IMG/VR virus record: IMGVR_UViG_3300032007_000008
Direction: 5' to 3' (one strand)
DNA from: a virus
Lineage: Duplodnaviria > Heunggongvirae > Uroviricota > Caudoviricetes
DNA length: 64,000 nt
Within the stretch, counting starts at the first letter, position 1; the number at the start of each line of letters is the position of its first letter. A program made the position numbers and the translations under genes. Shown one piece after another: positions 6,276 through 64,000 of the stretch. The notes beneath the pieces are model-generated. The model saw nothing but the letters and a program-made list of their open reading frames with translations. It ran no database searches and had not been told where the DNA came from.

Positions 6276-8699
6276 TTATATGCAGATTTCTTTCGAATTT
6301 GCAGGCTTGAACACGGTATTGATTGTCTGGCCTCCGTCGGTATCATCGTAAATCTGCTTTACAGCATCAGAATTGTTAACACCGGCCTTAACCGTCACAT
6401 TTCTATATGGCGATGGCTCTGTTATATTGCCAGTAAGGTGAAACTCTATGTTTTTATTTCCGCTTTCTATAATCACATATGAAACAAAATCTTGATTATT
6501 ACCGGCATCATTTAAAAAAACAATTGAACTGCAATCTTGGCCAAATGTATTGGATAGATATTTCAATCCAAACGTATTGTTAAAGCAGCCGTTTTCGAAC
6601 GTGTTGCTAACGCATCTGTTTCCTAACGTGTTGATGTAGCAGCCGTTTCCGAACGTGTTGTTGTAGCAGATGCTTCCGAACCTGTTGCTAACGCATCTGT
6701 TTCCTAACGTGTTGCTGTAGCAGCCGTTTCCTAACGTGTTGCTGTAGCAGCCGTTTCTGAACGTGTTGTTGTAGCAGAAGCTTCCTAACGTGTTGCTGTA
6801 GCAGCCGTTTCCTAACGTGTTGCTGTAGCAGCCGTCTCCTAACGTGTTGTTGTTGCAGTTGCTTCCGAACGTGTTGCTGTTGCAGTTGCTTCCGAACGTA
6901 TTGTTTTCACAGCCGTTTTCGAACGTGTTGTTATTACATTTCGCTCCTTTAAATACAATACAATTCAATTTCTGCTTATACGTCTGCGTGAAATAAAAAT
7001 TAATATGATTTCCAAATATAGAATTATTAAAACCATTAAGAGACAAATCGATGTTTTCTATTTCCGAGCCGCTATCGAAAGTATAGCGATATATTCCGCT
7101 TCCTTCACCAAACGCAAGAAATTGCAAACCTTTGAAATCATATGGACAATCGTTTCCAAACTCGTCAATAAGTCTATAGACTATTCCTTTGCAGCTGGAC
7201 TTCGCCCAATCGAAACGGTTTCTGTCGTTATCCATGCAATACCACACCTTCCAAGCGGAAAGCTTGCACCCTTCGAAGTATTTCCTTCGAACGTCGCCGT
7301 CCACAATATCATCCGGAAGGTTTCCGTCATGTATTGCTGCCCTTGCAACTTCGTTCAGCGCATTTGGCGAATCCGCAACCACTATTATGTCGAAACTGTG
7401 TTCCGCGCTGCGGCTTTTGCTATTTCCGTTCGTGACGGCAACATAATCCGTTATCCTGTATGACGCGCCAGGCACGAGCTTTCCGGCATCGCGTCTCTCC
7501 TTCAATTCGGAATACGTCAACGACTCCATCACCTTTTGATAATCGTCAAATGTCTCTCCGCTGTCTGTCAGCATACCGTTTTTGTCAAACTTCGGTATGT
7601 TTCCTTCAACAGCCGATTCGACCTTATTAATCTTCGAGGCACCCATAGTCTCGAATGCCGAAAAGATACCGCTAGACTTTACTGGATTTACGCTTCCCTG
7701 TGTCGGAACGCTGTCGAATGTCAGAGTTCCCTGCTTATTCTTGAGAAGCTCGTCAACATCATCTTTCGTATAGCACTTTCTGACAGCCTTTGTAATCGCA
7801 GCGTTCGCCACTGGATTTGTACTGTTTTCGCTCAACGTTAAATCGACAGTGACACGGCCATCTCCATCCTTGTATGTTCTTTTTGCCGGATTTCCACTGT
7901 CTATGAGGTCGGCAAGGTTTGCGGCGTTTTCCGTAGCGTTCACCGCTATCTTGACATCTTGCCTATAATCGTCGTTGATTTGGTATATCCAACACCAATT
8001 CTCCACGTCATATTCGCCACGTACTGCATACGTCAGATACCATTTTCCGTAATGTCTGTCGTAGAGAGGAAGCCATTCGATGCCTGACCGTCCTATTGAC
8101 TTAACATCATCCAGAGTAAGGGTATGCCCCTTTGGAAGAGAAATTCCCTCGGATTCAAGAGTTATGTCGTTATACAGAATCTGACCGACGTACAGATGCT
8201 CTATTATGTCTCCTTCATTCGTATACTCGACATGAACTTGCGTCATGTACTTTTCGGATGTATAGTCAGAAGAATTGTTTACAACGATGAAGTTTCCGTT
8301 TGACGCGCTAGACAGCGATTCGGCGGAAGACTTAACATCGCTCCAATCCGCGAATTCCCCTATGAAGGAATTTCCTCCGTCTAGGTCGGTAAGTAGCCTA
8401 TGACCGCCTTCACCTCCTATTGTCACACTCAGGTCTGCATTTATCTGATTTAGCTTGCCTGAATAGTCTAATGATGAAATTGTCGGAAGCGAAACGTTGT
8501 TGTTTTCGTCAGGTCTTACTCCGTTTATGGACTTTACAGTTCCGAAGTTGCCTGAAACGCTGCTTACTACAGCCCATACGTATCCACGTGTAGCAAGGTT
8601 GTAGGTATTGTTGCAGTTTACGCTTACGTCTATGCTGCTCAGTCCGCAGTTGCTTTCCGAGCTTGCCAGTGTTGGAATGTTGTTATTTGCCGAAGCCAT
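6276..8699 (-). CDS. Tail fibre / receptor-binding-like protein with C-terminal 9-aa Asn/Cys repeats
   Basis: VKSINGVRPDENNNVSL and LTFDSVPTQGSVNPVKSSGI fibre motifs, about 14 NT(F/L)GxxCxx repeats, late promoter upstream. Confidence 0.65.
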   Translation of the reverse strand: MASANNNIPTLASSESNCGLSSIDVSVNCNNTYNLATRGYVWAVVSSVSGNFGTVKSINGVRPDENNNVSLPTISSLDYSGKLNQINADLSVTIGGEGGHRLLTDLDGGNSFIGEFADWSDVKSSAESLSSASNGNFIVVNNSSDYTSEKYMTQVHVEYTNEGDIIEHLYVGQILYNDITLESEGISLPKGHTLTLDDVKSIGRSGIEWLPLYDRHYGKWYLTYAVRGEYDVENWCWIYQINDDYRQDVKIAVNATENAANLADLIDSGNPAKRTYKDGDGRVTVDLTLSENSTNPVANAAITKAVRKCYTKDDVDELLKNKQGTLTFDSVPTQGSVNPVKSSGIFSAFETMGASKINKVESAVEGNIPKFDKNGMLTDSGETFDDYQKVMESLTYSELKERRDAGKLVPGASYRITDYVAVTNGNSKSRSAEHSFDIIVVADSPNALNEVARAAIHDGNLPDDIVDGDVRRKYFEGCKLSAWKVWYCMDNDRNRFDWAKSSCKGIVYRLIDEFGNDCPYDFKGLQFLAFGEGSGIYRYTFDSGSEIENIDLSLNGFNNSIFGNHINFYFTQTYKQKLNCIVFKGAKCNNNTFENGCENNTFGSNCNSNTFGSNCNNNTLGDGCYSNTLGNGCYSNTLGSFCYNNTFRNGCYSNTLGNGCYSNTLGNRCVSNRFGSICYNNTFGNGCYINTLGNRCVSNTFENGCFNNTFGLKYLSNTFGQDCSSIVFLNDAGNNQDFVSYVIIESGNKNIEFHLTGNITEPSPYRNVTVKAGVNNSDAVKQIYDDTDGGQTINTVFKPANSKEICI
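6550..6935 (-). repeat. In-frame 27-bp tandem repeat array (~14 units)
   Basis: Minus-strand unit aac acg tt(c/a) gga aac ggc tgc tac agc repeated head-to-tail with substitutions. Confidence 0.95.
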
Positions 8700-48676: not shown

Positions 48677-51600
48677 TTAGCTCAGTATAACGTCGAACAA
48701 CTCGGTCTGTGCTGGCTTCATTCCATCAACTATGTCTGTCACATGGTTCTTTATCCATACGGAAAGCTGACGCTTCTGCTCATCCGTCAGATAGGGGCTG
48801 TCATCTATGCCAAGGCCATCTATCCTCACGCTGAAAAGATTGGATTTATGTATATTCTGCGACGTGAAACGGTTCAACGAGTATACCGCCTCGACGTTAT
48901 CATACGTCTTGAACGAATTTACGTTTTCTCCCTGGTACTCATCGACTTTTGTATGCAGCGACACTGACGGGTCGTCAGTCCTCAGGTCGGTCATGGTCAT
49001 GGCTATGGCATATGCATTGTCAGAGATTTTTATGCCATATGGAAGCGACGCGGAACCGGCAACACGGTCTGCTGTCATGTACCACATTCCATGGTTTCCG
49101 ACACCAAAAACCATCCTGTTTCCGTTAGCCCTTATGAAACTCTTGTTTGACGAATTTACGACAAGACTCCCTATTTCCTCATAAGTATTCAGTTCGAGAA
49201 TGTTGCTATTTCCAAAAAGACTTGGGATGCTGTTCGATGCCACTACAGATACGGATATTGGATTTGGGTTAACAATCGGAAGGTTTGCTCCGTCAAATCC
49301 GCGCATGCCGAATGTGAAATTGCTTGATTTATATTCGTCAAATCCATGCCCCGAGTCATCGTCGCCGGTAAGGTTTACAGTAGTACTCCATTCAAACTCT
49401 ATCGGCTTTCTCACGAACGAATAGCTGGAAATAGCCTTAGTCTGCTGCAAGTTGGCCGTTGCAGGCACTGTATTATTCGAAGTAGATGCACTCAACGCTC
49501 TCTGGTTAGCAGTGGCTGTGGTGAGGATTTTGTTTGAATATCCGAAAATGGCTGGAACAATTGTCTTAAGATGCACCGAAATCGAATAGTTGTTGTATGT
49601 CTGTGGGCATACTGTCAATATCGATGTAGTAACTACGGATGACGTACTGTATGTTGGGGTTCCTGATATCGATATATTCTTTGTCTCCGATTCGGTCCTA
49701 TCTCCAACTTCCTTCAAAAATCCATCCATACTTTGAAACATAGTTGTTGTTTCATACGTATGCGTCCAAGAGTTACTCTCCGAAAACTCAATTTCCTCTT
49801 TGTCGGCCCTGAAGTATATTGGCTGTTTTCGCGTCTGTGAACCATATATCCTCTTGTTGCGTTCCGCAGCGGTATTTGGATATAAAGGATGCCAATAGTC
49901 CGTTCCACTGCATCCTGCCGTCTTTACGGTTTCCTTGCTGCTGAGTCCATGCGTAATAAGCGTGGTGAAATGTCCTATCACCGCTCCACTAGTCTCCGTG
50001 CATCCACTGCATGTTATTGTAGAGATTTGCCCTGTGATATCATCTTTTCGAACTTTGACGAGTTTCACGAGCGGACAACTACTAATACCTATGGTCCATA
50101 TGAGCCTGCTAATCTCCTTTTCGCCATCAGCAGCAGACTTCGACGATTGTCCCCTTGTAATATAATCGTCAACATCCGCAGAATAGTTTTCGAAAAACAA
50201 AGACGACATGTTCATGGTATTTATATATGTATCATATGAAAAACCAGAATTATCATATGAATTCATTTCAGCGGATGTTCCGCTTCCATAAATCGCGCTA
50301 GACAAAATCTGTTCGGTTACGGAACGTTCGTCTGGAGTCGTGCGAGATAAGAGACCGAAGTACAGGTATCTATCATTGTACGCCAAATCCATGTCAAGAA
50401 CTGTATAGGAACTATTGGATGACGTAAATGTTGAATTCGCGGAGTTGACGGCAGAACATGTGTCATATACTATCTTGTTTCCGCTCGTAAAATCATAATA
50501 TCCGTTTATTGCGAGATTTTCATCATAGAACAACACAGAGCGTATATTTCTGCCGCCGTCCTTCATAATCTTGTAGTTGGTGAACGTAAATGCCGAAGTA
50601 GATGCTGCATCCGTCATGAACAATGTCTGTGGAGAACCGTTAACACTACTTACATACGCTAAATGGTAGCTGTCGCTTCCTATCTTCTCGTCGTTTGCTA
50701 TGAACGAGAATCCGCTGACGATTGCGTTCCGTCCTGTTGGCATGATGAACTCATGTATTCTGTATTCTCCGTCTGTATTATCTGGATAATCGCATTTTAC
50801 ACCGTTTTTATATACATAATCACAGCTAGAACCGCTAGAAAACACCATGAACTCGTTGCCTGAGAGAAACGCCGTCCTGGCCAGTCGTTCTCCATCGTTG
50901 ATTATCGAATCCGGCAGATTTATCCCCGTGGAAACAAATGTACCGCCGGTCGCTGGAACCGTTTCATATGGATATTTGGTATTACTACTGCCATAAGAGC
51001 CATATGTCTTGCGGTAATCTATTATACAAAGTGGATAACTGTTAGACGAACGCATAGCGACAAAATCGATGCAATTCTTGTTGTCAGTCAAATTCCAAAT
51101 GCCTGCATCAATTGCACTCCACTTTGTGCTTCCCGGATTAAGGTAATATAGGTGCGCAACGTCAACGGCGGATGCCGTGTCTATCTTGGAAAACAGCTCT
51201 CCGCACCTGAAAGAATAGCCGTTTATGTCTTCATAGTCTCTCGACACGAGAAGGATATTCCTACTCTTGTCATATGCAAGGCAAAACCTATCATTGCCTG
51301 TAGTCTCAAACGAGTTTATGAATGTGTAGCATCCTGAGGTTATCTCTTCGGTATCGAACGTAACGCCTATGACATTATTGTCACCATCTCGCGTTTCTAC
51401 AAGGTTTTTAACTATTCTTGCGTTCTTGATAGGTTCATTTATGGCCTTATACTTTATACCGTTTCCATCAGCCGTTTCCGAATACTTGTCGTCCGTAAAT
51501 AGAAAAGCTTCATCAAAAAGGTTAGCTATTCCAGAAAGCGGCACAAGCTCATCCTCGTTGTCATACTCAGATGTAAGCTCTGCATCATCCTGCGCCGAAG

Positions 51601-54600
51601 AGTATCTCAATATGTAATTTCCACGATTTTGCGCAGAATATGCCATTCCATTTGTGTTCTCCATATCGATGATACGTCCATTCTCCGACTTTTCAGAATA
51701 TACGTAACTATTTCCAATCAGTTTCTCGGTGACAGGAGCACCAGCATCTGGTAGGCTTATTGTCGTAAATATATTTCCAGAGTATCCAACAATATTTTTA
51801 CCGCATTTCTCGAAATTGACATTAGTAGGATTCATCTCGATTATGTCGTTTGCGGTAGAAATCTCCATGTAATGCCTCAAAACGGACATTCCGCTGTAAA
51901 ACCACTGTAAGCCTTCGGAAGTCCAAATTACTTCGTTGGACGACTTATCCTTTACAGGAATAGAATATTCAACAACTATAACTCCGTCAAAAAACCTTAT
52001 GTCCTCAACACGTCTATCATTTCCAATAGAAACCGGAGTTTTTTCATTAAGAAGTGAATTTGTCTCTATAAGTTCAAAATATTCGACTTCTTTGCCAGTT
52101 TCTTCTTTGCTGAGGCTTATATAGTAAAACCCGTCATGATATTTTACGAATTCAACATGATATCCGGCGTAAAATGGTTTCCACTCTTCACCTTCGTTTG
52201 ATGCAGGATACACATGAAGACCTTTCTTTGGGGCTATCCTGAACAGGTATCGGAAATTGCTTCCTAGAGTTTCTCCACTGGACATGACTTTTTCTATTTC
52301 ATATAGAGACTGTGTTGACCTCATGTCCTGAGAGCTGTTTAGGTTTACGACAACATATCCGCCTGTAGGATATTTTGGAACAGGATTGTCATATCCCCTG
52401 CCACCGTCCGGTATATCACCCTCTGTCACACTCTCGGCATTCACAGAATAGTTCTTGACTACGAGATAGTTGTTGACAAGCTGAATATCGTCAAGCGTCA
52501 TGCTCTTGTCGAGCTTTCCCTCGAAAACCTTAAGTCCTGTTCCAGCCGTGATAAAATCCCAATATGACGGAATAGGATATGCGTAACCACGCCTATCGTG
52601 AGACATAGATGTAAAGTCTTTCACGCTTGCAACTGTGCCTGGTGTACCAATCGGGTGATTGCTACATCTCCATATCCCATTCATACAATACCAACCGTCT
52701 TGCGTGTACGACGAATACTTGTCGCAGCCTTCTATATAAAATTCGTAAGATATTCCGCCATATTGTAGGCACAGACCTCCTAGTGAATTAGATGATGCTG
52801 AATCGGAATAAAAATCGTCATCCAAAACGCATGTTCCATCATCGGTATTCCATTTGACAAGAACCGGCCCTGCGTCATGAAGTGGAGTATGTGGCAGAAT
52901 GCTCTTTATTGAAACCGCATTCGAACGGTCTATCGGATATCCATTGACATAGGTGTGATTGGATATTCCAACCTGTTCTATATCTGCGCTTGCAGAACCA
53001 AAAAATGCAGCAATAGGTTCTCTTACTCCTATTGGCAAAAGAGTAAACGTCTGAAAATACCGATATTTATCTCCATCTTCAAGTGAATATGTTCCAAGAA
53101 GGGCTGATTCGGCATACGTAAACTTGTCGAGACTCTTGTATGATGCCAACGGAAACGTTATTTCGCTAACTGTCTTTGCGGCTGCGCTGGATACATTTGT
53201 CTGCAAAGTAAATTTCATTTCCCTGCAAATCGGTATTTCGCCGCCAACGGCAGCTGTAAGGCTTTCCGATTTGTTGGACGGTCCGCAATATCTGGTGGGA
53301 ATTCTATTTTCATCGCGAAATATGTCATCCTTGGAGCACATTCCGACAGTTCCGTCATCGTACTGTATGAACACGTAGCTTCCGTTGTCAACACTAAACG
53401 AACTCTTAGACTGAAGTTCAAAATCTCCATCGTCCAATTGAACTATATTGTCAGGCTTTATGTCGAATATGTACTTTCCTCCTGTAGATGCGAGAGTTAT
53501 ATTCGAAATGAGACCAAAGTCGTATTCGCAAGGACCGCCTTCGCATGTGTCCATATACTCCCATTTAAGGGTATGCATTTCATTTCCGGACGCTTCATAC
53601 GTGTATGACTGGAATGTTATCGTTCCGTCTTTTCGAGTTTTCTCTGAACCTCCAACGCCTTCAGTATATGAACCAGACTTCGTATGGCTAAAAACCTTTT
53701 TAACCGTAAAAGCACCATAATCCACAGAATCGTAGAATCTTAATGGATTATGGCCGAAAAATTCCCTCAATGCCACGGAAAACGTAATCTTGAACGGTGC
53801 TGGAACTTCCATAGTCGCATAGGTCGTCCTAGAAATCCCATTAAGCTCCATTCGTATGGAGTTAAAACCATTTAGTTTGTGAGAATCATCTATTCTCCAA
53901 GCTCTCTTTGTCTTGGATTCCGGCTTCAGCACAAATGCTCCGTCAAAATCACCGATGGAAATTGGGGAATAATCGAATATCGGAGTAAATCCGACCAGTG
54001 AATTTCCAACCAAATCTCCATCAAAGGTTATGCTGCTTGGTATTTCTGACGATGGATGGAATGTCGCGGCAAAATAGTTTCCAATCGGATATTTGACATT
54101 TGCGGTATCGGTGAAATCCTTTGACAAGTAAATCTTGCATGACGTTGTTTCGTCGCTCACAAAATATTTTTTGACTGCAAGAATGTCCTCTCCATTGTAG
54201 AACACGTCCGTTCGCCCATCCGTATCGTTGAACGACGGATTCCTAAGCCCAACGTAGCCGGGATTTTGAGGACAGCTTCCAAGTCTAGGACCGATAAATG
54301 GGTCGAATGACATTTCAGATGTCTCGTCTGGATTCAGGGGATTCACATAGCCATAATCCCTAGATACGACATTTATAGAACCGTTGTTGCGTGTGCCTAT
54401 GAACACAGACGATTCAAGTTCGATAAACGTCATGTTATCGAGAAGTTCTCCTCTAATTTCCCCATATTCGTCTGCATCATGCTTAAACTTGTAATAGTAT
54501 GGAGTACTAAATCCTCCAACTTTCGGTATGTAGCACAGTTGCGTGACTCTGTTGTATTTTGCTAGATGTTTGGCCTCGGATTCGTCATCCCCTCCTGCCA

Positions 54601-55603
54601 TGGCATACAGTATAAACGACTCGTCCTTCGGCTCGAAAGAGCGAAGAATGCAATAGCTGTCGGAAGTCGCCAAAGCAAACGTAGAGAAATAGTCGTTGAA
54701 CCCATACGAAAGATAAGTGCGATATCTGGTATAGGTCACGTTTTTAGATACGGCTGCTGCTATTCCAGAAATACGCCCAAGAGTCCAAAGGTCGAACACG
54801 GTGTCCAGGTTAAGCTCCTGCTTTGGCCTATAGAATCCATATTCGTTGCATGTTCCCCTGAGATTGTTCCTGAAAACCATGTACAGAGTGTCGCCGGTAT
54901 GTCCTATTCCATAATATGTTCTGAAATTGTCGAACGATATTGTCTGTCCGTCATCCGTATGGCCGTTTACAGAAAAATTTTCATCATAAAAGTATTTCGT
55001 CAGAAAAGAATCGGAAAATACAGTTGGAACATCTATGAGAGTTCCATCTTCATCAAGCTCGTTGTCTCCGAAATCCGAATAATACTTTCCCATCGGAAAC
55101 TCCGTCACATACTGAACCCCAACGTTGGGATGGTATGTCAAGTCTGGAGCAATGGTATCCGAATCGTCCGCCGCTACTGAGGACAGATAATAATATTGAC
55201 AATAGTCTGGCAACGCCTCATAATCGAACGAATCCGAAGCTTTGGCATGAAATCTCGAAGTCGTAGGATTTGAGAGTGAATACCCAATATCCCCAACCTG
55301 GCACATTCCGCAATAACTACCGGCGTTCGGCATGTACATCTCCTCATGCCTGCGCTTATTTCGTGGAGATAGCTTGGAACCGTTCTTGAGGATTTGAGTT
55401 CGGAACAAAAATGCGGAGCTGTCGTAAAGATTGCTTATGAGCTTTCCGTCCGAAGTGTACAGGTTCCACGGATTAACGTCTATCGATTCGGCGAAATCGG
55501 CAGTTGACGCCACGGATTCGATATCCGCGACCATCTGCTTGTCGCCGGACAGAACAAACACGTTCTTGTCCGTAATCAGTATGTCATCGACTTTTAGTGG
55601 CAT
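48677..55603 (-). CDS. 2308-aa putative baseplate wedge protein with a large beta-rich body
   Basis: C-terminal ..VTDIVDGMKPAQTELF resembles the KPAHT motif of baseplate wedge proteins; late promoter at 55625-55632. Confidence 0.6.
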   Translation of the reverse strand: MPLKVDDILITDKNVFVLSGDKQMVADIESVASTADFAESIDVNPWNLYTSDGKLISNLYDSSAFLFRTQILKNGSKLSPRNKRRHEEMYMPNAGSYCGMCQVGDIGYSLSNPTTSRFHAKASDSFDYEALPDYCQYYYLSSVAADDSDTIAPDLTYHPNVGVQYVTEFPMGKYYSDFGDNELDEDGTLIDVPTVFSDSFLTKYFYDENFSVNGHTDDGQTISFDNFRTYYGIGHTGDTLYMVFRNNLRGTCNEYGFYRPKQELNLDTVFDLWTLGRISGIAAAVSKNVTYTRYRTYLSYGFNDYFSTFALATSDSYCILRSFEPKDESFILYAMAGGDDESEAKHLAKYNRVTQLCYIPKVGGFSTPYYYKFKHDADEYGEIRGELLDNMTFIELESSVFIGTRNNGSINVVSRDYGYVNPLNPDETSEMSFDPFIGPRLGSCPQNPGYVGLRNPSFNDTDGRTDVFYNGEDILAVKKYFVSDETTSCKIYLSKDFTDTANVKYPIGNYFAATFHPSSEIPSSITFDGDLVGNSLVGFTPIFDYSPISIGDFDGAFVLKPESKTKRAWRIDDSHKLNGFNSIRMELNGISRTTYATMEVPAPFKITFSVALREFFGHNPLRFYDSVDYGAFTVKKVFSHTKSGSYTEGVGGSEKTRKDGTITFQSYTYEASGNEMHTLKWEYMDTCEGGPCEYDFGLISNITLASTGGKYIFDIKPDNIVQLDDGDFELQSKSSFSVDNGSYVFIQYDDGTVGMCSKDDIFRDENRIPTRYCGPSNKSESLTAAVGGEIPICREMKFTLQTNVSSAAAKTVSEITFPLASYKSLDKFTYAESALLGTYSLEDGDKYRYFQTFTLLPIGVREPIAAFFGSASADIEQVGISNHTYVNGYPIDRSNAVSIKSILPHTPLHDAGPVLVKWNTDDGTCVLDDDFYSDSASSNSLGGLCLQYGGISYEFYIEGCDKYSSYTQDGWYCMNGIWRCSNHPIGTPGTVASVKDFTSMSHDRRGYAYPIPSYWDFITAGTGLKVFEGKLDKSMTLDDIQLVNNYLVVKNYSVNAESVTEGDIPDGGRGYDNPVPKYPTGGYVVVNLNSSQDMRSTQSLYEIEKVMSSGETLGSNFRYLFRIAPKKGLHVYPASNEGEEWKPFYAGYHVEFVKYHDGFYYISLSKEETGKEVEYFELIETNSLLNEKTPVSIGNDRRVEDIRFFDGVIVVEYSIPVKDKSSNEVIWTSEGLQWFYSGMSVLRHYMEISTANDIIEMNPTNVNFEKCGKNIVGYSGNIFTTISLPDAGAPVTEKLIGNSYVYSEKSENGRIIDMENTNGMAYSAQNRGNYILRYSSAQDDAELTSEYDNEDELVPLSGIANLFDEAFLFTDDKYSETADGNGIKYKAINEPIKNARIVKNLVETRDGDNNVIGVTFDTEEITSGCYTFINSFETTGNDRFCLAYDKSRNILLVSRDYEDINGYSFRCGELFSKIDTASAVDVAHLYYLNPGSTKWSAIDAGIWNLTDNKNCIDFVAMRSSNSYPLCIIDYRKTYGSYGSSNTKYPYETVPATGGTFVSTGINLPDSIINDGERLARTAFLSGNEFMVFSSGSSCDYVYKNGVKCDYPDNTDGEYRIHEFIMPTGRNAIVSGFSFIANDEKIGSDSYHLAYVSSVNGSPQTLFMTDAASTSAFTFTNYKIMKDGGRNIRSVLFYDENLAINGYYDFTSGNKIVYDTCSAVNSANSTFTSSNSSYTVLDMDLAYNDRYLYFGLLSRTTPDERSVTEQILSSAIYGSGTSAEMNSYDNSGFSYDTYINTMNMSSLFFENYSADVDDYITRGQSSKSAADGEKEISRLIWTIGISSCPLVKLVKVRKDDITGQISTITCSGCTETSGAVIGHFTTLITHGLSSKETVKTAGCSGTDYWHPLYPNTAAERNKRIYGSQTRKQPIYFRADKEEIEFSESNSWTHTYETTTMFQSMDGFLKEVGDRTESETKNISISGTPTYSTSSVVTTSILTVCPQTYNNYSISVHLKTIVPAIFGYSNKILTTATANQRALSASTSNNTVPATANLQQTKAISSYSFVRKPIEFEWSTTVNLTGDDDSGHGFDEYKSSNFTFGMRGFDGANLPIVNPNPISVSVVASNSIPSLFGNSNILELNTYEEIGSLVVNSSNKSFIRANGNRMVFGVGNHGMWYMTADRVAGSASLPYGIKISDNAYAIAMTMTDLRTDDPSVSLHTKVDEYQGENVNSFKTYDNVEAVYSLNRFTSQNIHKSNLFSVRIDGLGIDDSPYLTDEQKRQLSVWIKNHVTDIVDGMKPAQTELFDVILS

Positions 55604-55639: not shown

Positions 55640-58600
55640 CTACCGCCTAATCAGCAGAGTTTCATACCATTCTTTCGGTATAGCACTTCTGTAATCGACC
55701 TTTCCGCTATCATACGAAATGGACGAACCGACATCAGGAATGTCTTCCACCGAACTTCCGTTGAATATACTGACGGGATGCGCCCTAGAAGACGTTACCT
55801 CGTATACGCCCCTGCATGCGTCGTGATATCCATTTATGTATATTCCTTCAGACCATGCGCCTGCATACCTCTTTCCTATGAAGTTTCCGTTGATGTCATA
55901 CACGAGAACTCCAAACAGAAGAGATGCCTTCTGAATCCAGTTGTATGCTCGATATATGCTGCTCTCTTTGGTCTTCGATTTCAGAACATTCCATGGGTCT
56001 GTGCGTCCATTCACCCAATCGTTGTGATTTACATAATACGCAGATACATTAAACAGAGCGTCAAATCCATCTGGGGTCAGCTTTTCTTCGCCTGAGGCAG
56101 TCCATGGAGCAAGCTTTACGACTTTGCCTGCGGAATTTTTGTATGGATAGTACGGAACCAGTATGAAGTAGTCGCTATTGGACTGAAGTTGACCGCCATA
56201 GCGGATAAAGCCGTTTGAAAATGCCCATCTCATGTAATCTGAATCCAGTCCATACCGAACATCGTCCGTTGGATTGTTGAAAGAACAGTATCTAACGGCG
56301 CCGGTTCTTTCGCTTATGCCGTTCATGTCATATATCAACTGGTCCAAACCGTCTATGCATTCACTTGTTGCTATTACGATGCTTGCAGGAAATGCATGTG
56401 AAAAGTTTTTTTCTGTCGGTGTCGAACCGGCACTTTCGACGGTATTGGCTGTCTTCTTTACGAGAACCGACAGGTCGAAATCGTCCTTTGTCGAATACAG
56501 CTTCTTGACATTGTTAAACATATACGCGATGCTCGAAGGCTCATAACCGTCAAGAGTTGTTGTTTTATGGTATGCATCTTCGAATGCATGGAAAGGAACA
56601 GGCTCATCGCTCTCTTCGCAAAGCATATATTCTCCGCGATGACGTTCGTCAGGCTCGCTGTCTCCATAGTCCTTTACTGTTATCTCGGTAACGCCTGAAC
56701 GGTATATCTTGTATACGTCATACCACGAAAGAGGTCTTCCGCTCTCATCTGAGCTTTCGACGACGACATTTCCTGTAACTATGTCGCAAGGAAATGTCTT
56801 TCCTTCTAAAATCCTCCTATGTCCTTCGGAAATTTTAGTTCCACGGGGAATCAAAACTCGTCCTGTATAGAGGTCTTCATCAAGTTTTTCGCCGGCAAGT
56901 CTATCAAACGCCCTCCAGGTGGTTATTCTGTCACCCTTGGAGAACGCTATTATTTTATTGCTCTCGTCATCCCTATCCGTTATGACTACATCTGATGTGA
57001 AAGTTCTTCCAGAAATCGCATAGAAGTCATTTTGCACAAACTGATGACCTGATTCAAAAGACTTAACTACGCTGCCTGCTGCAACAATGTCGTTTTTCAG
57101 AGGATTTTCAGCATATACCTCCACAGTAGTTATAGGCGTACTCTGTGCCGCCAAAGCGATTGCGTCTTCCCTAGACAAAACTTTGTTCTGATAGTAATTA
57201 TAGCGAACGCCTCCCTTATATACATTTGGTATTGGTGTGGCAAGATATCTTCCGTCAAGTGAATCGCCGTACACGGTTATGGAGTTAATCGACGCTGCCC
57301 TGCATCCATCTATAAACGATATGACATCCTCCTCATCCTCAGGAATCTGAAATTCCTTCGGGTATGCGGTGTTTTCTACAGCCAACATCCTTCCCGCGAT
57401 AATGTCATCGTTGTATATGTCTACTGTAAACACTCCATGAGAATACATATCCTCGATATCCGACTCGTCAAGTTTATGGCCAGACGGATAAATTTTGCTC
57501 CCAGACGGATAATTTTCATCATCTATGGAAACGTCGGAATACAAATACTCTCCTGCTATATCAGCATCTACGGCTACCGTTGCAGACAAAGAAATCTCTT
57601 CCGTAACATTTAAAGTTTCCGTATGGCCATGATATTTGAGCTTATCGTCGAAAATTTCTTCTGTTATCTCAGTTCCTGCCTCAATGACATTCTGACTTCC
57701 ATCAACTACATCCTCGGCAAGCCACTTTCCGACAAGCTCTCGCCGTGTGCTCTTTAGAACCGTAAGAGTCTGTTCAGGATTGTGTTCTACAAAATCTCCG
57801 GTTGTGATGACCCTTCCATTTTCCAGCCTAAGAGATATATTGGAAATGCACCATTCACGTATGTTGTAATAACCACCGTAAGAAACATTGTCATGGGTCA
57901 TTATCCTTATCATGTGTCTTCTCGGCGGTTCACCCTCTGCAAGAAAATCATTTGTCGCATACTGTACATTCTCCCATGTATCGACATTCTCCTGAGACGC
58001 GACGACACGTCTATCGCATATGCGGTATCTCTCGCTGTCATGTATATAAACATTGGAAACCTTATAACCGTTTCTTCCGTCCATAACGGCATTTGCGTTG
58101 TGTAGCCTTATTGCATCAAGGTCGTTCTTGGTGAAGGTGTGCTCCGCCTCGAAAAACGTCTCGTATATGCTGCTCCATACAGCATGCTCGCCATTGGAGC
58201 TTCCGCTTATGATATCACCATTTGCAAGATTTTTTACACTAGTAGATATCCACGAACTCCCATTTTTCCGAAACACAGAGGTAACTCTATGATTGACTAA
58301 TTCCTCTTTGACATATGTTGCATTCGTTATGACATATTTTGCCGGATACAGCATCTTTACATATCTAAGTGGGTTTTTAAGGGTCATCCCCTCAAGGCTT
58401 AGATTTATGTTTCCTGCATCTCCGCTTCTTTCAACTTGTTCCCAAGTGCTGTATGGATAATCAATCGTATCGTCTATAAGGTAAATCAAGCCGTTCTTGA
58501 ATGGAAGTTTGCACTTCCAATAAAAGCTAAGTTCGAAATTACCGTCAACCGTAAAGGACAGTGTATCCATCTGCCCATATAAGGTGTTCTTACAAGTAAG

Positions 58601-61198
58601 AGAGTTGTATCCGTTCAAAAGTTCTCCATCGTCAACGCCCCACCCGTTCATCTCGCTCTCATTCCAGTCTATCGTGACATAGTTTATCATATACTGTGAC
58701 ACGCCTGCTGCCGATACCGCAGCATTATATGAATCTATATCCCGTGTGTCGTTCTTTGTCAAATAACGGTCTTTTTCCATCCATGTGGTAAGCTTGCCAC
58801 TGTATATGTCTTTCTTTGCAGGATAAGACGAGATTCTGTCTCCAACATTTATCGAATTTACCCTCTTGAGCTGGTAGGAAGTTCCATCATAATTATAGAC
58901 GTAGTATATATTGTTGGAGGAGAGAGTTTCTTTAACTCCAACAGCGTCATTTACGGTGAAATCTTTCTCGTAAAGTTTTTCATGCCTTTTTAAATCCGCT
59001 CCAAGAGTTTCGTCGTCAAGTGCAGACGCGCCATTTCTTATATATACGTTTCTGAGATAGCCACTCCTGTTGTAATAAGCTGAATATACGGTGACATATC
59101 TCACAGCTCCTCTGCTAATGAGATTAAGGTCTTCATCTGTTATGACGTGGCCTGCTCCAAACGATTTCGTTTTAAGCGTACTACCATCATAATAACTAAA
59201 TGCTATTGGCCTAGCCAACGTGCGTCCAACAACATTACTATTAACTGCGCACGTAACTGGAAAGTTCCAGCGGTTTCTCCTTCCGCGCCAATGCCACCAG
59301 GAACGGTACCATCCGCCGCGATACCAGCTTCCCCATCCATACCATCCGTAGTAGTAGGGGTTGTATCCGTACCATGCGTTGTAATACGCTGGATATGCAT
59401 ACCATCCGCCATACCATGTATTATAGTACTTGTAGTAGTTGTAATAGTATCCGTTGTACCACCCTCCGTAGTATGGATAGTAGTTTGTATAGTAATAGTA
59501 GTTGTTGTAGTAATATGGGTAATAGTACTGGTTATTGTAATAATAGTAGTAGCTTCCGTAATAACCGTAATAATTGTAGTAATTATAGTAATACGGATTG
59601 CTGTAATAGTAGTTATACCCATAATAACTATAGTTATATGGATAATATCCATAGTAATTGTAGTAATATGGATAGTAATAGCCATTATACCAATACGGAT
59701 GACGCACCCATCCGCCTCTCCACCACCACCAATTATGCGAATACATCGCAGAAAGAACCATTGTTGGGCAATGAGCTGGCTTTTCGCGCCTATAATGGAT
59801 GAACGACTTGCTTAAGTCAAGCTCAAGACTTGAGCAGTTATTGAACATTCTTTCATACGTATAGCCATAATTCGGTATGAAACCGTCAATCTTCTTTAAG
59901 TCTCCACAGTCCTCGAACATGCTTTCGTATGTTATTTTTCCGTTATAGCACGAACTTCCGACATTTTCCTCGGACATACAGCATGATATTCCACGTAGGT
60001 CTGCATACCTCGAAGACGTGTTCGAATACATGTTGGAAAAATCGTATACTCCATTAGGATATATCTCCAGCTCCTCCCCTCCTGCGCAAAACGCCTTTCC
60101 GTCAGGCAGATAATCCGTTGGGATGGTTTCTGAAATAAGCTTGAGGGTTTCTGAAATAGTTCCAATGTCGTCTGTTGATTTGGACATTATAAGAGCTGGA
60201 GCGGACGATGCTATCCACCTGTCGCCTGAAAACATGTCCTTCATGGAATTGACATAATTGACCTTGTTTATCAGTATTCTGCTTACGCCGTTATCTATAA
60301 GAAGCCTCAAAATCTCATCTGTTATAATCTCTCCGTTGCCGCATATAACATGGCTTTCAGAATCGGCTATCTCCTGTGCCGATATCTTGCCAACAATTTT
60401 CTCAGACACATCGACCGTTTCGGTAAGATAAACGTCGATAGTTTGAATATCTTTCTCGACAAGCATATCTATCTTGTCTTCATCGACCACTTCGCCAACG
60501 GACATTAAAAGCTCAACAGGGGAATATGTATCGAATGCGACCATTCTTCCGATTACCCGGTTTTCGAATTCGTCGTCATAGGAATCAATAACTATATTTT
60601 CAGTACTATACACTTCCACGCTAAACACGGAGCTTTCATTCAGTTTAACTATGTCGTTTATCGTAAGAACATGATTTTGGCCAACAATTCCACCCTCAGA
60701 CGCGCTTGCTGTCAGCCGTCCAACAGCGGATACCTTTGCTGGTATTATTTCCGTTTCCGGGTTGCCATCACCATCCTTAGCCACAACCTCGACACTAGAA
60801 AGTCCTTTAGAAACAGCATTTTCAACGGTGGATGCATTAAGTATGGAACATGATGCAAACAGTTGTTCCCCGCCTACGTAAATGCTTTTCGCTGAAACAC
60901 GACCATTAGATGCATTCACGCTTACGGATTCAGAATCGGTATATCCTACAAGCTGAAACTTTGTGTCGTTGAATGCAAACCGCGAATTAGTAAAAGCTTC
61001 GTCGCAATCAGACAACATGCTCATCCTAGACTTTTGTCCATCAAATGTAGTGCTACCCTCAGCACCGGCTCCATAAAACATGGAATCCATGTACTTCACT
61101 TTGTCCGATATGCTCTGGAAGTTCATGTTCGGTGCGTCTAGGCTTTCGCAGCCGTAGAACATGTAGTTTAGGTTTTCATATGCTTTGTCGTTTGCCAT
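55640..61198 (-). CDS. 1852-aa multidomain virion-like protein (DUF285-like repeats, RNAP-beta'-like modules, Tyr-rich tract, jelly-roll module)
   Basis: Long ORF with AAGGA upstream; domains read from the translation. Confidence 0.75.
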   Translation of the reverse strand: MANDKAYENLNYMFYGCESLDAPNMNFQSISDKVKYMDSMFYGAGAEGSTTFDGQKSRMSMLSDCDEAFTNSRFAFNDTKFQLVGYTDSESVSVNASNGRVSAKSIYVGGEQLFASCSILNASTVENAVSKGLSSVEVVAKDGDGNPETEIIPAKVSAVGRLTASASEGGIVGQNHVLTINDIVKLNESSVFSVEVYSTENIVIDSYDDEFENRVIGRMVAFDTYSPVELLMSVGEVVDEDKIDMLVEKDIQTIDVYLTETVDVSEKIVGKISAQEIADSESHVICGNGEIITDEILRLLIDNGVSRILINKVNYVNSMKDMFSGDRWIASSAPALIMSKSTDDIGTISETLKLISETIPTDYLPDGKAFCAGGEELEIYPNGVYDFSNMYSNTSSRYADLRGISCCMSEENVGSSCYNGKITYESMFEDCGDLKKIDGFIPNYGYTYERMFNNCSSLELDLSKSFIHYRREKPAHCPTMVLSAMYSHNWWWWRGGWVRHPYWYNGYYYPYYYNYYGYYPYNYSYYGYNYYYSNPYYYNYYNYYGYYGSYYYYYNNQYYYPYYYNNYYYYTNYYPYYGGWYNGYYYNYYKYYNTWYGGWYAYPAYYNAWYGYNPYYYGWYGWGSWYRGGWYRSWWHWRGRRNRWNFPVTCAVNSNVVGRTLARPIAFSYYDGSTLKTKSFGAGHVITDEDLNLISRGAVRYVTVYSAYYNRSGYLRNVYIRNGASALDDETLGADLKRHEKLYEKDFTVNDAVGVKETLSSNNIYYVYNYDGTSYQLKRVNSINVGDRISSYPAKKDIYSGKLTTWMEKDRYLTKNDTRDIDSYNAAVSAAGVSQYMINYVTIDWNESEMNGWGVDDGELLNGYNSLTCKNTLYGQMDTLSFTVDGNFELSFYWKCKLPFKNGLIYLIDDTIDYPYSTWEQVERSGDAGNINLSLEGMTLKNPLRYVKMLYPAKYVITNATYVKEELVNHRVTSVFRKNGSSWISTSVKNLANGDIISGSSNGEHAVWSSIYETFFEAEHTFTKNDLDAIRLHNANAVMDGRNGYKVSNVYIHDSERYRICDRRVVASQENVDTWENVQYATNDFLAEGEPPRRHMIRIMTHDNVSYGGYYNIREWCISNISLRLENGRVITTGDFVEHNPEQTLTVLKSTRRELVGKWLAEDVVDGSQNVIEAGTEITEEIFDDKLKYHGHTETLNVTEEISLSATVAVDADIAGEYLYSDVSIDDENYPSGSKIYPSGHKLDESDIEDMYSHGVFTVDIYNDDIIAGRMLAVENTAYPKEFQIPEDEEDVISFIDGCRAASINSITVYGDSLDGRYLATPIPNVYKGGVRYNYYQNKVLSREDAIALAAQSTPITTVEVYAENPLKNDIVAAGSVVKSFESGHQFVQNDFYAISGRTFTSDVVITDRDDESNKIIAFSKGDRITTWRAFDRLAGEKLDEDLYTGRVLIPRGTKISEGHRRILEGKTFPCDIVTGNVVVESSDESGRPLSWYDVYKIYRSGVTEITVKDYGDSEPDERHRGEYMLCEESDEPVPFHAFEDAYHKTTTLDGYEPSSIAYMFNNVKKLYSTKDDFDLSVLVKKTANTVESAGSTPTEKNFSHAFPASIVIATSECIDGLDQLIYDMNGISERTGAVRYCSFNNPTDDVRYGLDSDYMRWAFSNGFIRYGGQLQSNSDYFILVPYYPYKNSAGKVVKLAPWTASGEEKLTPDGFDALFNVSAYYVNHNDWVNGRTDPWNVLKSKTKESSIYRAYNWIQKASLLFGVLVYDINGNFIGKRYAGAWSEGIYINGYHDACRGVYEVTSSRAHPVSIFNGSSVEDIPDVGSSISYDSGKVDYRSAIPKEWYETLLIRR
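59265..59740 (-). repeat. Tyr/Asn/Gly/Trp low-complexity coding tract
   Basis: WWWWRGGW..YYYPYYYNYYGYY..GGWYRSWWHWRGRR. Confidence 0.95.
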
Positions 61199-61211: not shown

Positions 61212-64000
61212 TTAATTGAACGTGAAGTCTGTAAATAATCCGTTTGTGCATCCATAGAACGCGCCAGACATCGACTCCATGTCTGTCGGTATCGACGATA
61301 TACTCTCAAACCTGCACTTTTGGCAGTTATGGAAAGCATCGCTCATGTCAACTGTTCCAGAAGGTATCGTTATTCCATCCAATATAGCGTTTTTACAATT
61401 GAAGAACATGGACTTCATGCTCGTGAGAACTGAAGCGGATATGTTCGCAGATGGTATCGACGCGGAATAGCAATTCTCGAACATCGAACGCGCCTCCTTT
61501 ACATCTATCTTGGTTCCTTCTGGCCATGATGTCACAGAACGATTTACATCCTTTCTATGGAGATTGTCTATTCTCTTCTCTATATACAATGTTGAACCAA
61601 AATCCGCATTTATGCAATCCTTGAACATTTCATTATAGGAAGACAGCGTTGTATTTGGACTCATAAACACGAGATTGCTGTCTTTTACGAATGTCCGCAT
61701 GCCATCAGACGGAGACAAATGACCGTATATGCCGGAAAAAGACGCAGTATTTGAATATCCGCACTTTATGAAAGCGTCCAAAGACGAGATTTTCTCTGTG
61801 CCGTCAGTTGGATTGAGCTTTACTATCTCAGGATAATCATCTGGGTCTGAAATATAATCGGGAAGGCTGAAATCCTCGAAATCCTGATATACTGACGCAA
61901 ATCCGGTAATATTTGAGGCGGAAGAATACCCAATATGTTTTAATTCGCGTCTTTCGTCATTGAACCCATATGATATGTTAAGATAGTCCGCAAACACATC
62001 TTCATCAGGTTCGTAATGTTTATAAATGCAATATTTTGGAGTATCATCGACCGTTGCAAATGTGTAAACTATGGCATCGCTTCCGATATTGTAGCTCTTG
62101 CTCTTTAATACCATATTCGCATACCTGTCCTTGAACTTTTCTGGAACCTGTCCAACCGGAGTGGTTATTATCGTCACAGAGGAGTCCTTGATTGCGTTCA
62201 ATAGAGTAAACGTGAACTCATAGACTGAAACATAATCTGGATTTTGGTCTGTTCCTATATTTGTCATCACCTTCTCATATGTGACAAGTATTGGAAATCC
62301 GTTGTCTATCTCTACGACACCATAATCGTCTCTTCCCGTGAAATTGGTCTTGCAAAAGCTTACAGCTCCGCTCTCTGAAGACTCCCTCAACGTAAACAGA
62401 AGCTCGTTGTCTGGATAGTTGCCAACTTTGTCCGAATCGGCTATATCCATTGGGTTCTTAAAGGTATAGTAGTTCACGAACCGATTTGCCGCGCTATTAT
62501 ATGCCAACACGCGCTGCCCATTGCTTGGATACATCACAAGAGTTTTATTGACAACCTCAAACCCGCGATAGCTTACGGCCTCGTTGCCCAATTCCTCGTG
62601 TACGTCAACATATTCGAATCGAGTTTCCTTCTCGGTATCCAACACGTTTGTTATCCTTAGAACATTTGCGCTGTTTCTTGGGGACAGGAATACATCGCCG
62701 TCGAACAGGTACGAAGACGTATATTCTATTCCGTCATTATGGTCGAACGTGAACGTTTCGAAATCACCTTCAGCCTTTCCGACTGTTATCTCTATTGGAG
62801 ATTGTCCGTCCAATCCGCTCACGAGAACGATGGTTTCGTCGGAATAATCAACAAACATCTCCTCATAAAGATTTTCGGAGAAAATCTCCTTCTGCCATAC
62901 CACGTTTACGTAATGGGAATCGTCAACAGGCCATTCGCCTTCAGTATCGTAAAATCCATCGCAAGCCGCATAATCGGAAATTCCGTTTGTGAGGACTCTC
63001 CATTTGCAATTGCCAAACCTAAGTTCCTTTTTCCAGTTCTTTCCGTCCTCGGAGAACATCACATAGCGTCCGTCGATTGACTCTGCGTAGAATCTGTCCT
63101 TTCCGCATCCTATAAGTCTCTTCAAAGACCCTCTCGACTCTATTGCTCTATAAAAGTTCTTTCCGCCATCTGTCGAAACGAGAATGCTGTCTCCTCCGTC
63201 GGCTGCGCATATCACAGTATTTCCTATGGACATAGGCTGTCCAAGACTCATGGGAGCATATTCGGTTTCACCGTCGAAATCGTAAATCGACGACTTTTCC
63301 GAAACACTTCCGCTATATGCTATGTTCCTGTCAATCCAGCCGAGCTGAGAATATCCGTTGGCGTTTACCGCAACAACCACAAACGATTCGTTTTCGCAAA
63401 CCATGGAAGACACGGTATCAGACTCTGGATACTTCACAACGCCGTCCAGTGAATGTTCCATTCTTTCAAGAGATACTGTCCAATTTGAATCGGAATCTCC
63501 GAAATCTATCGTAAGTTTGAGAAGGGAATTGACTATATCTGAGCGCGTATGCTCGAAAGTGGCTATATGCGTAAGCTCTTGCGTCTCGGCATCTTTCTCA
63601 TCAGTATCGTCAACGGTGTCTTCTGGCGAATCCACGCCAAAAATGAAATGTGCCGAATTCTTGATATACGTTCCGCCGCAAATGCTTGTCGCAAAGCCAA
63701 GTGAATCCGAACTCAACCTCTTCTCAGGCCCTATCTTCGACAGTTCTACCTCGAAAACCTTTTCGCCATCCGATATGTACAAACCGGATTCAGATATGCT
63801 GCGGTCGGATGGGTTGAACCTTTTCAGAATCAACTTCTTTTGGGAATCAGAATCTCGCGTACCAGTTGACAGTGACATCAATGCGCAAGGATATTCAACT
63901 CCACGACTTTTCACCACGAACGTAAACACTTCACCGTCGTGGCTTCCAACATCGTTATCGGTGATTCCTCCCAAAGAGTCTACGGCAAAAAACCTTTCGG
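61212..64000 (-). CDS. Large tail protein, 5'-truncated, with beta-propeller (BNR-like) and DUF285-like repeats
   Basis: The frame is open to the window edge (ERFFAVDSLGG..), so TTG 63974 is not the true start. STDGGKNF and SEDGKNW are BNR motifs; the C-terminus has MFxxC repeats. Confidence 0.75.
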   Translation of the reverse strand, partial: ERFFAVDSLGGITDNDVGSHDGEVFTFVVKSRGVEYPCALMSLSTGTRDSDSQKKLILKRFNPSDRSISESGLYISDGEKVFEVELSKIGPEKRLSSDSLGFATSICGGTYIKNSAHFIFGVDSPEDTVDDTDEKDAETQELTHIATFEHTRSDIVNSLLKLTIDFGDSDSNWTVSLERMEHSLDGVVKYPESDTVSSMVCENESFVVVAVNANGYSQLGWIDRNIAYSGSVSEKSSIYDFDGETEYAPMSLGQPMSIGNTVICAADGGDSILVSTDGGKNFYRAIESRGSLKRLIGCGKDRFYAESIDGRYVMFSEDGKNWKKELRFGNCKWRVLTNGISDYAACDGFYDTEGEWPVDDSHYVNVVWQKEIFSENLYEEMFVDYSDETIVLVSGLDGQSPIEITVGKAEGDFETFTFDHNDGIEYTSSYLFDGDVFLSPRNSANVLRITNVLDTEKETRFEYVDVHEELGNEAVSYRGFEVVNKTLVMYPSNGQRVLAYNSAANRFVNYYTFKNPMDIADSDKVGNYPDNELLFTLRESSESGAVSFCKTNFTGRDDYGVVEIDNGFPILVTYEKVMTNIGTDQNPDYVSVYEFTFTLLNAIKDSSVTIITTPVGQVPEKFKDRYANMVLKSKSYNIGSDAIVYTFATVDDTPKYCIYKHYEPDEDVFADYLNISYGFNDERRELKHIGYSSASNITGFASVYQDFEDFSLPDYISDPDDYPEIVKLNPTDGTEKISSLDAFIKCGYSNTASFSGIYGHLSPSDGMRTFVKDSNLVFMSPNTTLSSYNEMFKDCINADFGSTLYIEKRIDNLHRKDVNRSVTSWPEGTKIDVKEARSMFENCYSASIPSANISASVLTSMKSMFFNCKNAILDGITIPSGTVDMSDAFHNCQKCRFESISSIPTDMESMSGAFYGCTNGLFTDFTFN

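Follow-up and report, generated by a model that had tools for sequence, protein, structure and literature searches.

Arrays of predicted BBM2 modules, a domain known from RNA polymerase, in contractile-tail proteins of a T4-like jumbo phage and of a CIS locus

Why does a gene in the tail cluster of a phage encode a long series of modules that resemble a small surface domain of RNA polymerase (RNAP)? The gene in question, which encodes the protein P0001, lies in a 64,000-nucleotide stretch of DNA (hereafter ‘the window’) that corresponds to bases 99039–163038 of a virus record of 291,479 bp with a completeness rating of 100%. The phage is an uncultured T4-like jumbo phage: its major head protein, portal, gp6 baseplate wedge, tail tube and tail sheath match T4-type PHROGs, and its genome (G000) carries 38 tRNAs, a tmRNA, a GroEL-like gene and a DnaK gene (254117–266868, 223312–225015 and 261833–263869). 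A host search via the phage DnaK yielded at most ~62% full-length identity, with matches in unrelated phyla, and in GTDB there was no close relative among the matches listed. The minus-strand gene order is sheath, tubes, hub genes, gp6, a 2682-aa protein, the 1852-aa P0001, and then proteins of 2308, 408 and 2095 aa. The P0001 gene thus sits two genes downstream of that for the gp6 baseplate wedge, separated from its neighbours by gaps of just 13 and 36 bases, and this position after gp6 suggests that P0001 is a baseplate-associated virion protein. Comparison of P0001 and its orthologue P0039 with PHROGs, Pfam and NCBIfam matched no known baseplate family of the T4 gp7/gp8/gp9/gp10 type. Neither of the flanking giant genes (window 61212–64000 and 48677–55603, minus strand) has a family match; the upstream one has DUF285-like turns at its end, resembling those at the P0001 start, which hints at an LRR-type solenoid common to both genes.

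P0001 is not a multisubunit RNAP subunit, as it contains no double-psi barrel with DFDGD and no Rpb1/Rpb2 domains. The first-pass annotation had remarked that the catalytic NADFDGD is absent; this extends to the whole 291-kb genome, where both the DFDGD motif and PF04998 have zero matches, and the phage therefore most likely relies on the host polymerase.

The repeats themselves are real but strongly diverged. Both peptides quoted in the first-pass annotation were located in the P0001 reading frame (55640–61198, minus strand), at aa 268–310 (60269–60397) and aa 1155–1183 (57650–57736). Modules are ~45 aa long, and conservation among them is confined to the first-strand Gly, the hydrophobic core, a Gly-x-x-Ile-Thr turn and a closing Val-x-Val strand. 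Since the copies average 19% identity, self-BLAST of P0001 barely detects them (best E 0.03), and we therefore used a leave-one-out profile test: for each module, a profile lacking it and its orthologues was evaluated, with 300 shuffles and windows of the module-free orthologue serving as background. In P0001 itself, ten modules are recovered with ≤1/300 shuffles reaching the score (A2, A3, A4, B1, C1, D1, D2, D3, D4 and D7), and A1 and B2 pass via the orthologue P0002 (21.0 and 12.2 bits, as compared to 3.6 for the top module-free window). B3, C2, D5, D6 and D8 are marginal (5–16/300 shuffles); B3 and C2 are better supported because block B2–B3 (aa 725–843) duplicates block C1–C2 (aa 934–1052), with 29% identity over 119 aa and an E-value of 1e-10. 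The count is therefore 12 solid modules plus five degenerate or marginal ones, up to 17 in all, distributed over inserts A to D as 4, 3, 2 and 8 copies (Table 1). Where about 10–14 modules had been claimed between 56660 and 60740, repetition is borne out and the number is close to that found here, with A1 left outside the interval. Russian-doll nesting of D5–D8 was considered and rejected: by eye there are no returning strands after D8, and D5–D8 are thus taken as truncated tandem copies. No DNA-level repeats link the modules, and the amplification is therefore old.

Table 1. Module-bearing inserts and scaffold segments of the P0001 gene, and the further module copy in the window (window coordinates)
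Feature	Position	Strand	Description
Host gene P0001	55640–61198	-	1852 aa; ~990-aa scaffold plus four BBM2-bearing inserts; predicted baseplate-region virion protein
Scaffold N-terminus, DUF285/BspA-like turns	60929–61198	-	PF03382 E 0.011, under cut-off
Insert A	60257–60928 (aa 91–314)	-	A1 60779–60907, A2 60605–60730, A3 60425–60562, A4 60263–60403; none in P0003 and P0039
Tyr/Trp/Asn/Gly-rich tract	59255–59743 (aa 486–648)	-	Part of scaffold, no module; present in all three orthologues
Insert B	58670–59254 (aa 649–843)	-	B1 59081–59239, B2 58886–59026, degenerate B3 58670–58852; P0003 has B1 only, P0039 none
Insert C	58040–58444 (aa 919–1053)	-	C1 58265–58402, degenerate C2 58040–58225; missing in P0039
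Insert D	56645–57769 (aa 1144–1518)	-	D1 57602–57742, D2 57410–57565, D3 57266–57406, D4 57110–57265; missing in P0039
Insert D, rest	D5 57014–57109, D6 56903–57019, D7 56807–56905, D8 56669–56812	-	D5 and D6 truncated, D8 degenerate; P0002 lacks exactly D2
C-terminal scaffold domain	55643–56644 (aa 1519–1852)	-	Conserved; 50% identity to P0039; no Pfam/PHROG match
Single BBM2-like copy	8049–8198	-	Inside fibre-like gene 6276–8699; 23.4 bits with a profile not trained on the copy, 0/2000 shuffles

On the agreement of sequence comparison and structure prediction, we identify the P0001 modules as BBM2 (beta-beta' module 2) domains. When a profile of ten phage copies, its seed modules picked by eye from the previously described motif, was run against the PDB, it matched two modules of RpoB beta-i4 (6j9e_C, E 1.4e-6), the Vibrio domain 3e7h (E 2.4e-4) and beta' ~835–880 (7ye1_D, E 5e-4), with everything else at E ≥ 0.2. 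Among 1.84e9 proteins the true non-self matches were mostly RpoB/RpoC module arrays; profile matches to repetitive proteins (PKD, TIG, Calx-beta and LRR: P0004–P0006, P0009, P0013 and P0019) were discarded as artefacts. Single modules are 44–52% identical to some RNAP copies, the RNAP set having been selected by the same profile. Pfam and PHROGs scans of the P0001 modules and an Atlas feature search of aa 95–315 returned nothing. A tree of the 44-column modules did not resolve: phage copies are 23% identical to RNAP copies and 20% identical to each other, and the tree thus cannot separate one capture from several.

Module A3, the only one folded, was modelled from 60 aligned copies of phage and contractile-injection-system (CIS) origin, from which polymerase rows were kept out so as to avoid circularity. 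The predicted model (pLDDT 83.5) consists of a short strand, a beta-hairpin, a helix and a closing strand. In Foldseek the best 50 rows were all RNAP beta/beta', with TM 0.60–0.73 and none at E < 0.001, such weak E-values being expected at 50 residues. VIA-align superimposed A3 on plastid beta'' with Z 6.4 (rmsd 2.1 Å over all 50 residues), on E. coli beta' 835–886 with Z 6.1 and on beta 242–294 with Z 5.5, and a wide structure search added MoeA (1uz5, Z 5.3), an Orn/Lys/Arg decarboxylase (2x3l, Z 4.9), gephyrin (Z 4.4) and uL10/P0 (Z 3.5), with the entry 1fc5 at Z 4.5. Taken alone, the Z values of this predicted model are middling. The two checks that the first-pass annotation had put forward – an HMM built from the repeats and Foldseek of a single module against RNAP structures – thus point the same way: the phage profile finds RpoB/RpoC BBM2, A3 shares the RNAP fold rather than failing to, and the suspected likeness to a small RpoB/RpoC surface domain is well founded. 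The further likeness it had seen to the N-terminus of HD-GYP proteins holds for the fold only (an HD-GYP-type protein in the Atlas, TM 0.75), and a family scan found the HD catalytic domain missing from P0001. Foldseek of A3 against viral models gave no credible match (best E 0.64), a result that does not show absence from other viruses. A single-sequence AlphaFold model of the eight-module array (aa 1150–1530) reached pLDDT 33 and was discarded.

To what kind of protein have the modules been added? The closest relatives, drawn from ENA and Logan metagenome assemblies, include three orthologues with conserved synteny, namely P0002 (1791 aa), P0003 (1425 aa) and P0039 (988 aa). P0039 is ~50–68% identical to the P0001 scaffold and has zero modules; P0001 is in effect a P0039-like scaffold plus inserts A–D, with seamless junctions. 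Together with P0001 the four known orthologues form a copy series of 0, about 9, 16 and 17, and differ by clean one-module and four-module indels: P0002 lacks exactly D2, and P0003 lacks insert A and B2–B3. Amplification, as proposed in the first-pass annotation, is thus upheld; the structural rod into which the domain was said to have been amplified is not, since there are four separate, optional inserts. Between P0001 and P0002, dN is 0.27–0.42 for the inserts and 0.07–0.17 for the scaffold, with pS of 0.68–0.92, near saturation. The inserts are therefore constrained, less so than the scaffold: they are under purifying selection, change two to three times faster, and amount to about 860 extra residues retained in frame beyond synonymous-site saturation. 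IMG/VR and JGI contig scans found no true P0001 orthologue, and L005 was rejected as one because its match was to a generic LRR. P0039 (L006 10001–12967) has a ~100-aa insert of its own at ~aa 160–260, not BBM2-like, where P0001 has few residues; this fifth site indicates that the scaffold accepts inserts generally.

The scaffold has few recognisable parts. PF03382 scores 16–19 bits on its N-terminus, as compared to a cut-off of 25, and the Atlas feature score for DUF285/BspA-like turns is 0.87 on P0039, to be taken as a lead only. The Tyr/Trp/Asn/Gly-rich tract, 163 aa in P0001, is shorter in P0003 and P0039 (about 105–122 aligned residues), and its dN of 0.17 between P0001 and P0002 indicates that it is under selection. 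The scaffold pieces on either side of insert C (58445–58669 and 57770–58039, minus strand) resemble what we take to be halves of a jelly-roll domain of carbohydrate-binding type, seen also in the reading frame 48677–55603; Pfam and PDB searches gave no support for this reading.

The module is not confined to P0001. Using profiles not trained on the copies in question, we found single copies in four other genes of the phage: the tail sheath (genome ~182219–182368) and three fibre-like genes, namely the one at window 6276–8699, a Listeria-Bacteroides-repeat gene (genome 95923–97566) and a BspA-LRR gene (genome 227772–233384). Each of these copies beats 2000/2000 shuffles, with reversed decoys at ≤5.1 bits, and all copies detected in the 291-kb genome fall within tail-type genes. 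The phage that encodes P0039 lacks the module in both genes that can be compared: its sheath is 71% identical and has a ~45-residue gap at the module site, and no copy was found in its ~49-kb tail region (best 4.1 bits). The distant sheath relatives G002–G006 also have no module, but their sequences are fragments. Between the sheath and tube genes of the module-free phage lies a DUF7487 gene on the opposite strand (L013 7123–9009, minus strand); the window's phage has no reading frame of similar size there.

A second, independent case is P0010 (L004 3196–17061), a 4621-aa TIGR02243 baseplate protein of a CIS, whose gene has CIS_tube/LysM, GPD, base_V, gp25 and P2-I genes in its neighbourhood. 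With the T4-like modules as its sole training set, a profile detected 27 BBM2-like copies in P0010; iteration raised the number to 37, and the copies lie within aa 35–3464. As in P0001, the module forms a large array, in frame, in a structural protein of a contractile tail, here close to the N-terminus; P0010 differs in its unrelated scaffold and in having one contiguous array that extends over ~3400 aa. P0010 is a singleton in the database.

What, then, are the modules for? We consider it probable that in this phage BBM2 serves as an optional accessory domain exposed on the virion exterior, used in the way that phages use Ig-like domains. A compact ~45-aa module of the BBM2/RMOD type was inserted in frame at four sites in P0001, at one in the sheath and into three fibre-like genes. 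Copy number shifts by whole modules or blocks, with at least one block duplication within the P0001 gene. By analogy with E. coli beta-i4, the inserts may form short beaded arms that extend from loops on the surface, at about 2.5 nm per module; given that the two-module cylinder of beta-i4 measures ~22 by 50 Å, an extended insert D might measure as much as ~20 nm. Such arms would add contact surface, either cementing neighbouring tail parts or providing weak multivalent binding to the host envelope or gut polymers. We know of no carbohydrate binding by BBM2. Consistent with a place on the outside, the three single-copy genes other than the sheath have BspA LRR, Listeria-Bacteroides repeats or a fibre-like build. 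On the sheaths of large phages, Ig-like and other extra domains are likewise located away from the tube, with proposed roles in adhesion or in stabilising and cementing the tail (PMC9230969).

Since a related phage manages without the module in both genes comparable, decoration of the virion exterior is most likely the better description than a polymerase decoy. The latter idea, raised in the first-pass annotation as a multivalent RNAP mimic, would have a cytoplasmic or pre-assembly protein titrate BBM2-binding host factors, for instance regulators of the DksA/TraR type or phage sensors monitoring RNAP. It draws on the best sequence matches being RNAP copies (including the profile-selected ones noted above), on the phage having no RNAP of its own and, as a precedent, on the contact of TraR with E. 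coli beta-Si1 (PMC6970531). A decoy should, however, keep a shared surface, and the copies conserve none: only core residues are kept, and in the register given by the alignments of the phage profile to the PDB, the columns that match beta R268/R272/R275 are basic in 5/30, 0/30 and 3/30 copies, the middle one being acidic in 18. Furthermore, the fold is not specific to RNAP, being common to MoeA, decarboxylases and uL10, and the same module is found in the sheath, and the sheath of a contractile tail does not enter the cell. Taken together, we regard the mimic as highly improbable. A role before assembly could also be imagined in which the modules work inside the cell as acidic tags, for solubility or spacing, and prevent large, sticky tail proteins from coming out of solution. 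Inserts A and D are indeed strongly acidic (net -21 and -33), and inserts flank the 160-aa Tyr/Trp tract, B directly after it and A about 170 aa before; however, the module-free orthologue retains the tract, inserts B and C are neutral and the sheath has a single copy only, which makes this explanation distinctly improbable.

Much of the same data is accounted for by nearly neutral accretion, whereby a self-folding, insertion-tolerant module spreads by recombination among late genes and, while bringing no benefit, is kept since a misfolded copy harms its host protein. The complete absence of the module from a close relative, the low constraint and divergence of the copies and the existence of truncated and degenerate ones all fit, as does the repeated insertion and multiplication of BBM2 in RNAP (PMC1586193, PMC2939025). 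Against it stand the retention in frame of the inserts past synonymous saturation and, suggesting a use for the module, the restriction to tail-type genes in this genome together with the independent CIS baseplate case; we judge accretion without benefit to be unlikely. It is also unlikely, in our view, that BBM2 is a general binding module whose arrays are displayed by contractile machines, a T4-like phage and independently a CIS, and hold on to one particular ligand, either a host surface or a protein. If true, this would explain what the BBM2 inserts of RNAP, HD-GYP proteins and MoeA bind.

An accessory domain on the virion exterior would have parallels on two sides. In RNAP, where BBM2 was inserted several times independently (PMC1586193) and occurs in beta-i4 as one to six tandem repeats (PMC2939025), it is likewise an optional insert with variable tandem copy number, with the same motif and fold (3e7h, 7egs and 6j9e) in E. 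coli beta-i4/SI1 (beta 225–343), Firmicute beta-i5 and beta' ~835–886. The phage copies differ in residing in non-enzymatic tail proteins, up to 17 at four sites (27–37 in the CIS protein), and in lacking the basic patch R268/R272/R275 that is conserved in beta-i4 (PMC2939025). The RMOD superfamily of Iyer et al. links beta', MoeA and decarboxylases (PMC7824862), families that the structure search with A3 also returned (1uz5, 2x3l and 1fc5); where the match is to MoeA or a decarboxylase, the module extends across a large insertion. The accessible part of that paper places the module in RNAP and enzymes only, as single units, and mentions no virion protein (PMC7824862). On the phage side, the Ig-like and accessory domains of sheaths, fibres and baseplates (PMC9230969) are likewise optional, sporadic, variable in copy number and located on the outer faces of large-phage tail proteins; in contrast to these beta-sandwiches, BBM2 is a small alpha/beta module.

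Both the BBM2 domain and the phage habit of adding accessory domains to tail proteins are thus known already. What appears to be new is the presence of BBM2 arrays in contractile-tail proteins of two unrelated systems, of which we found no description in the literature searched. A domain known from RNAP and enzymes would thereby join the mobile accessory domains of virions, alongside Ig-like domains. The orthologue series, together with a sheath pair that differs by one copy, offers a direct way to test how the module affects stability or adsorption. A resemblance to BBM2 is no proof of a function in transcription, a point relevant to the interpretation of uncharacterised beta-i4 and beta-i5 inserts. 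Among polymerases, P0015, P0025, P0032 and P0038 are divergent or fused beta/beta'-like subunits with BBM2 copies, possibly from phage or unusual bacteria.
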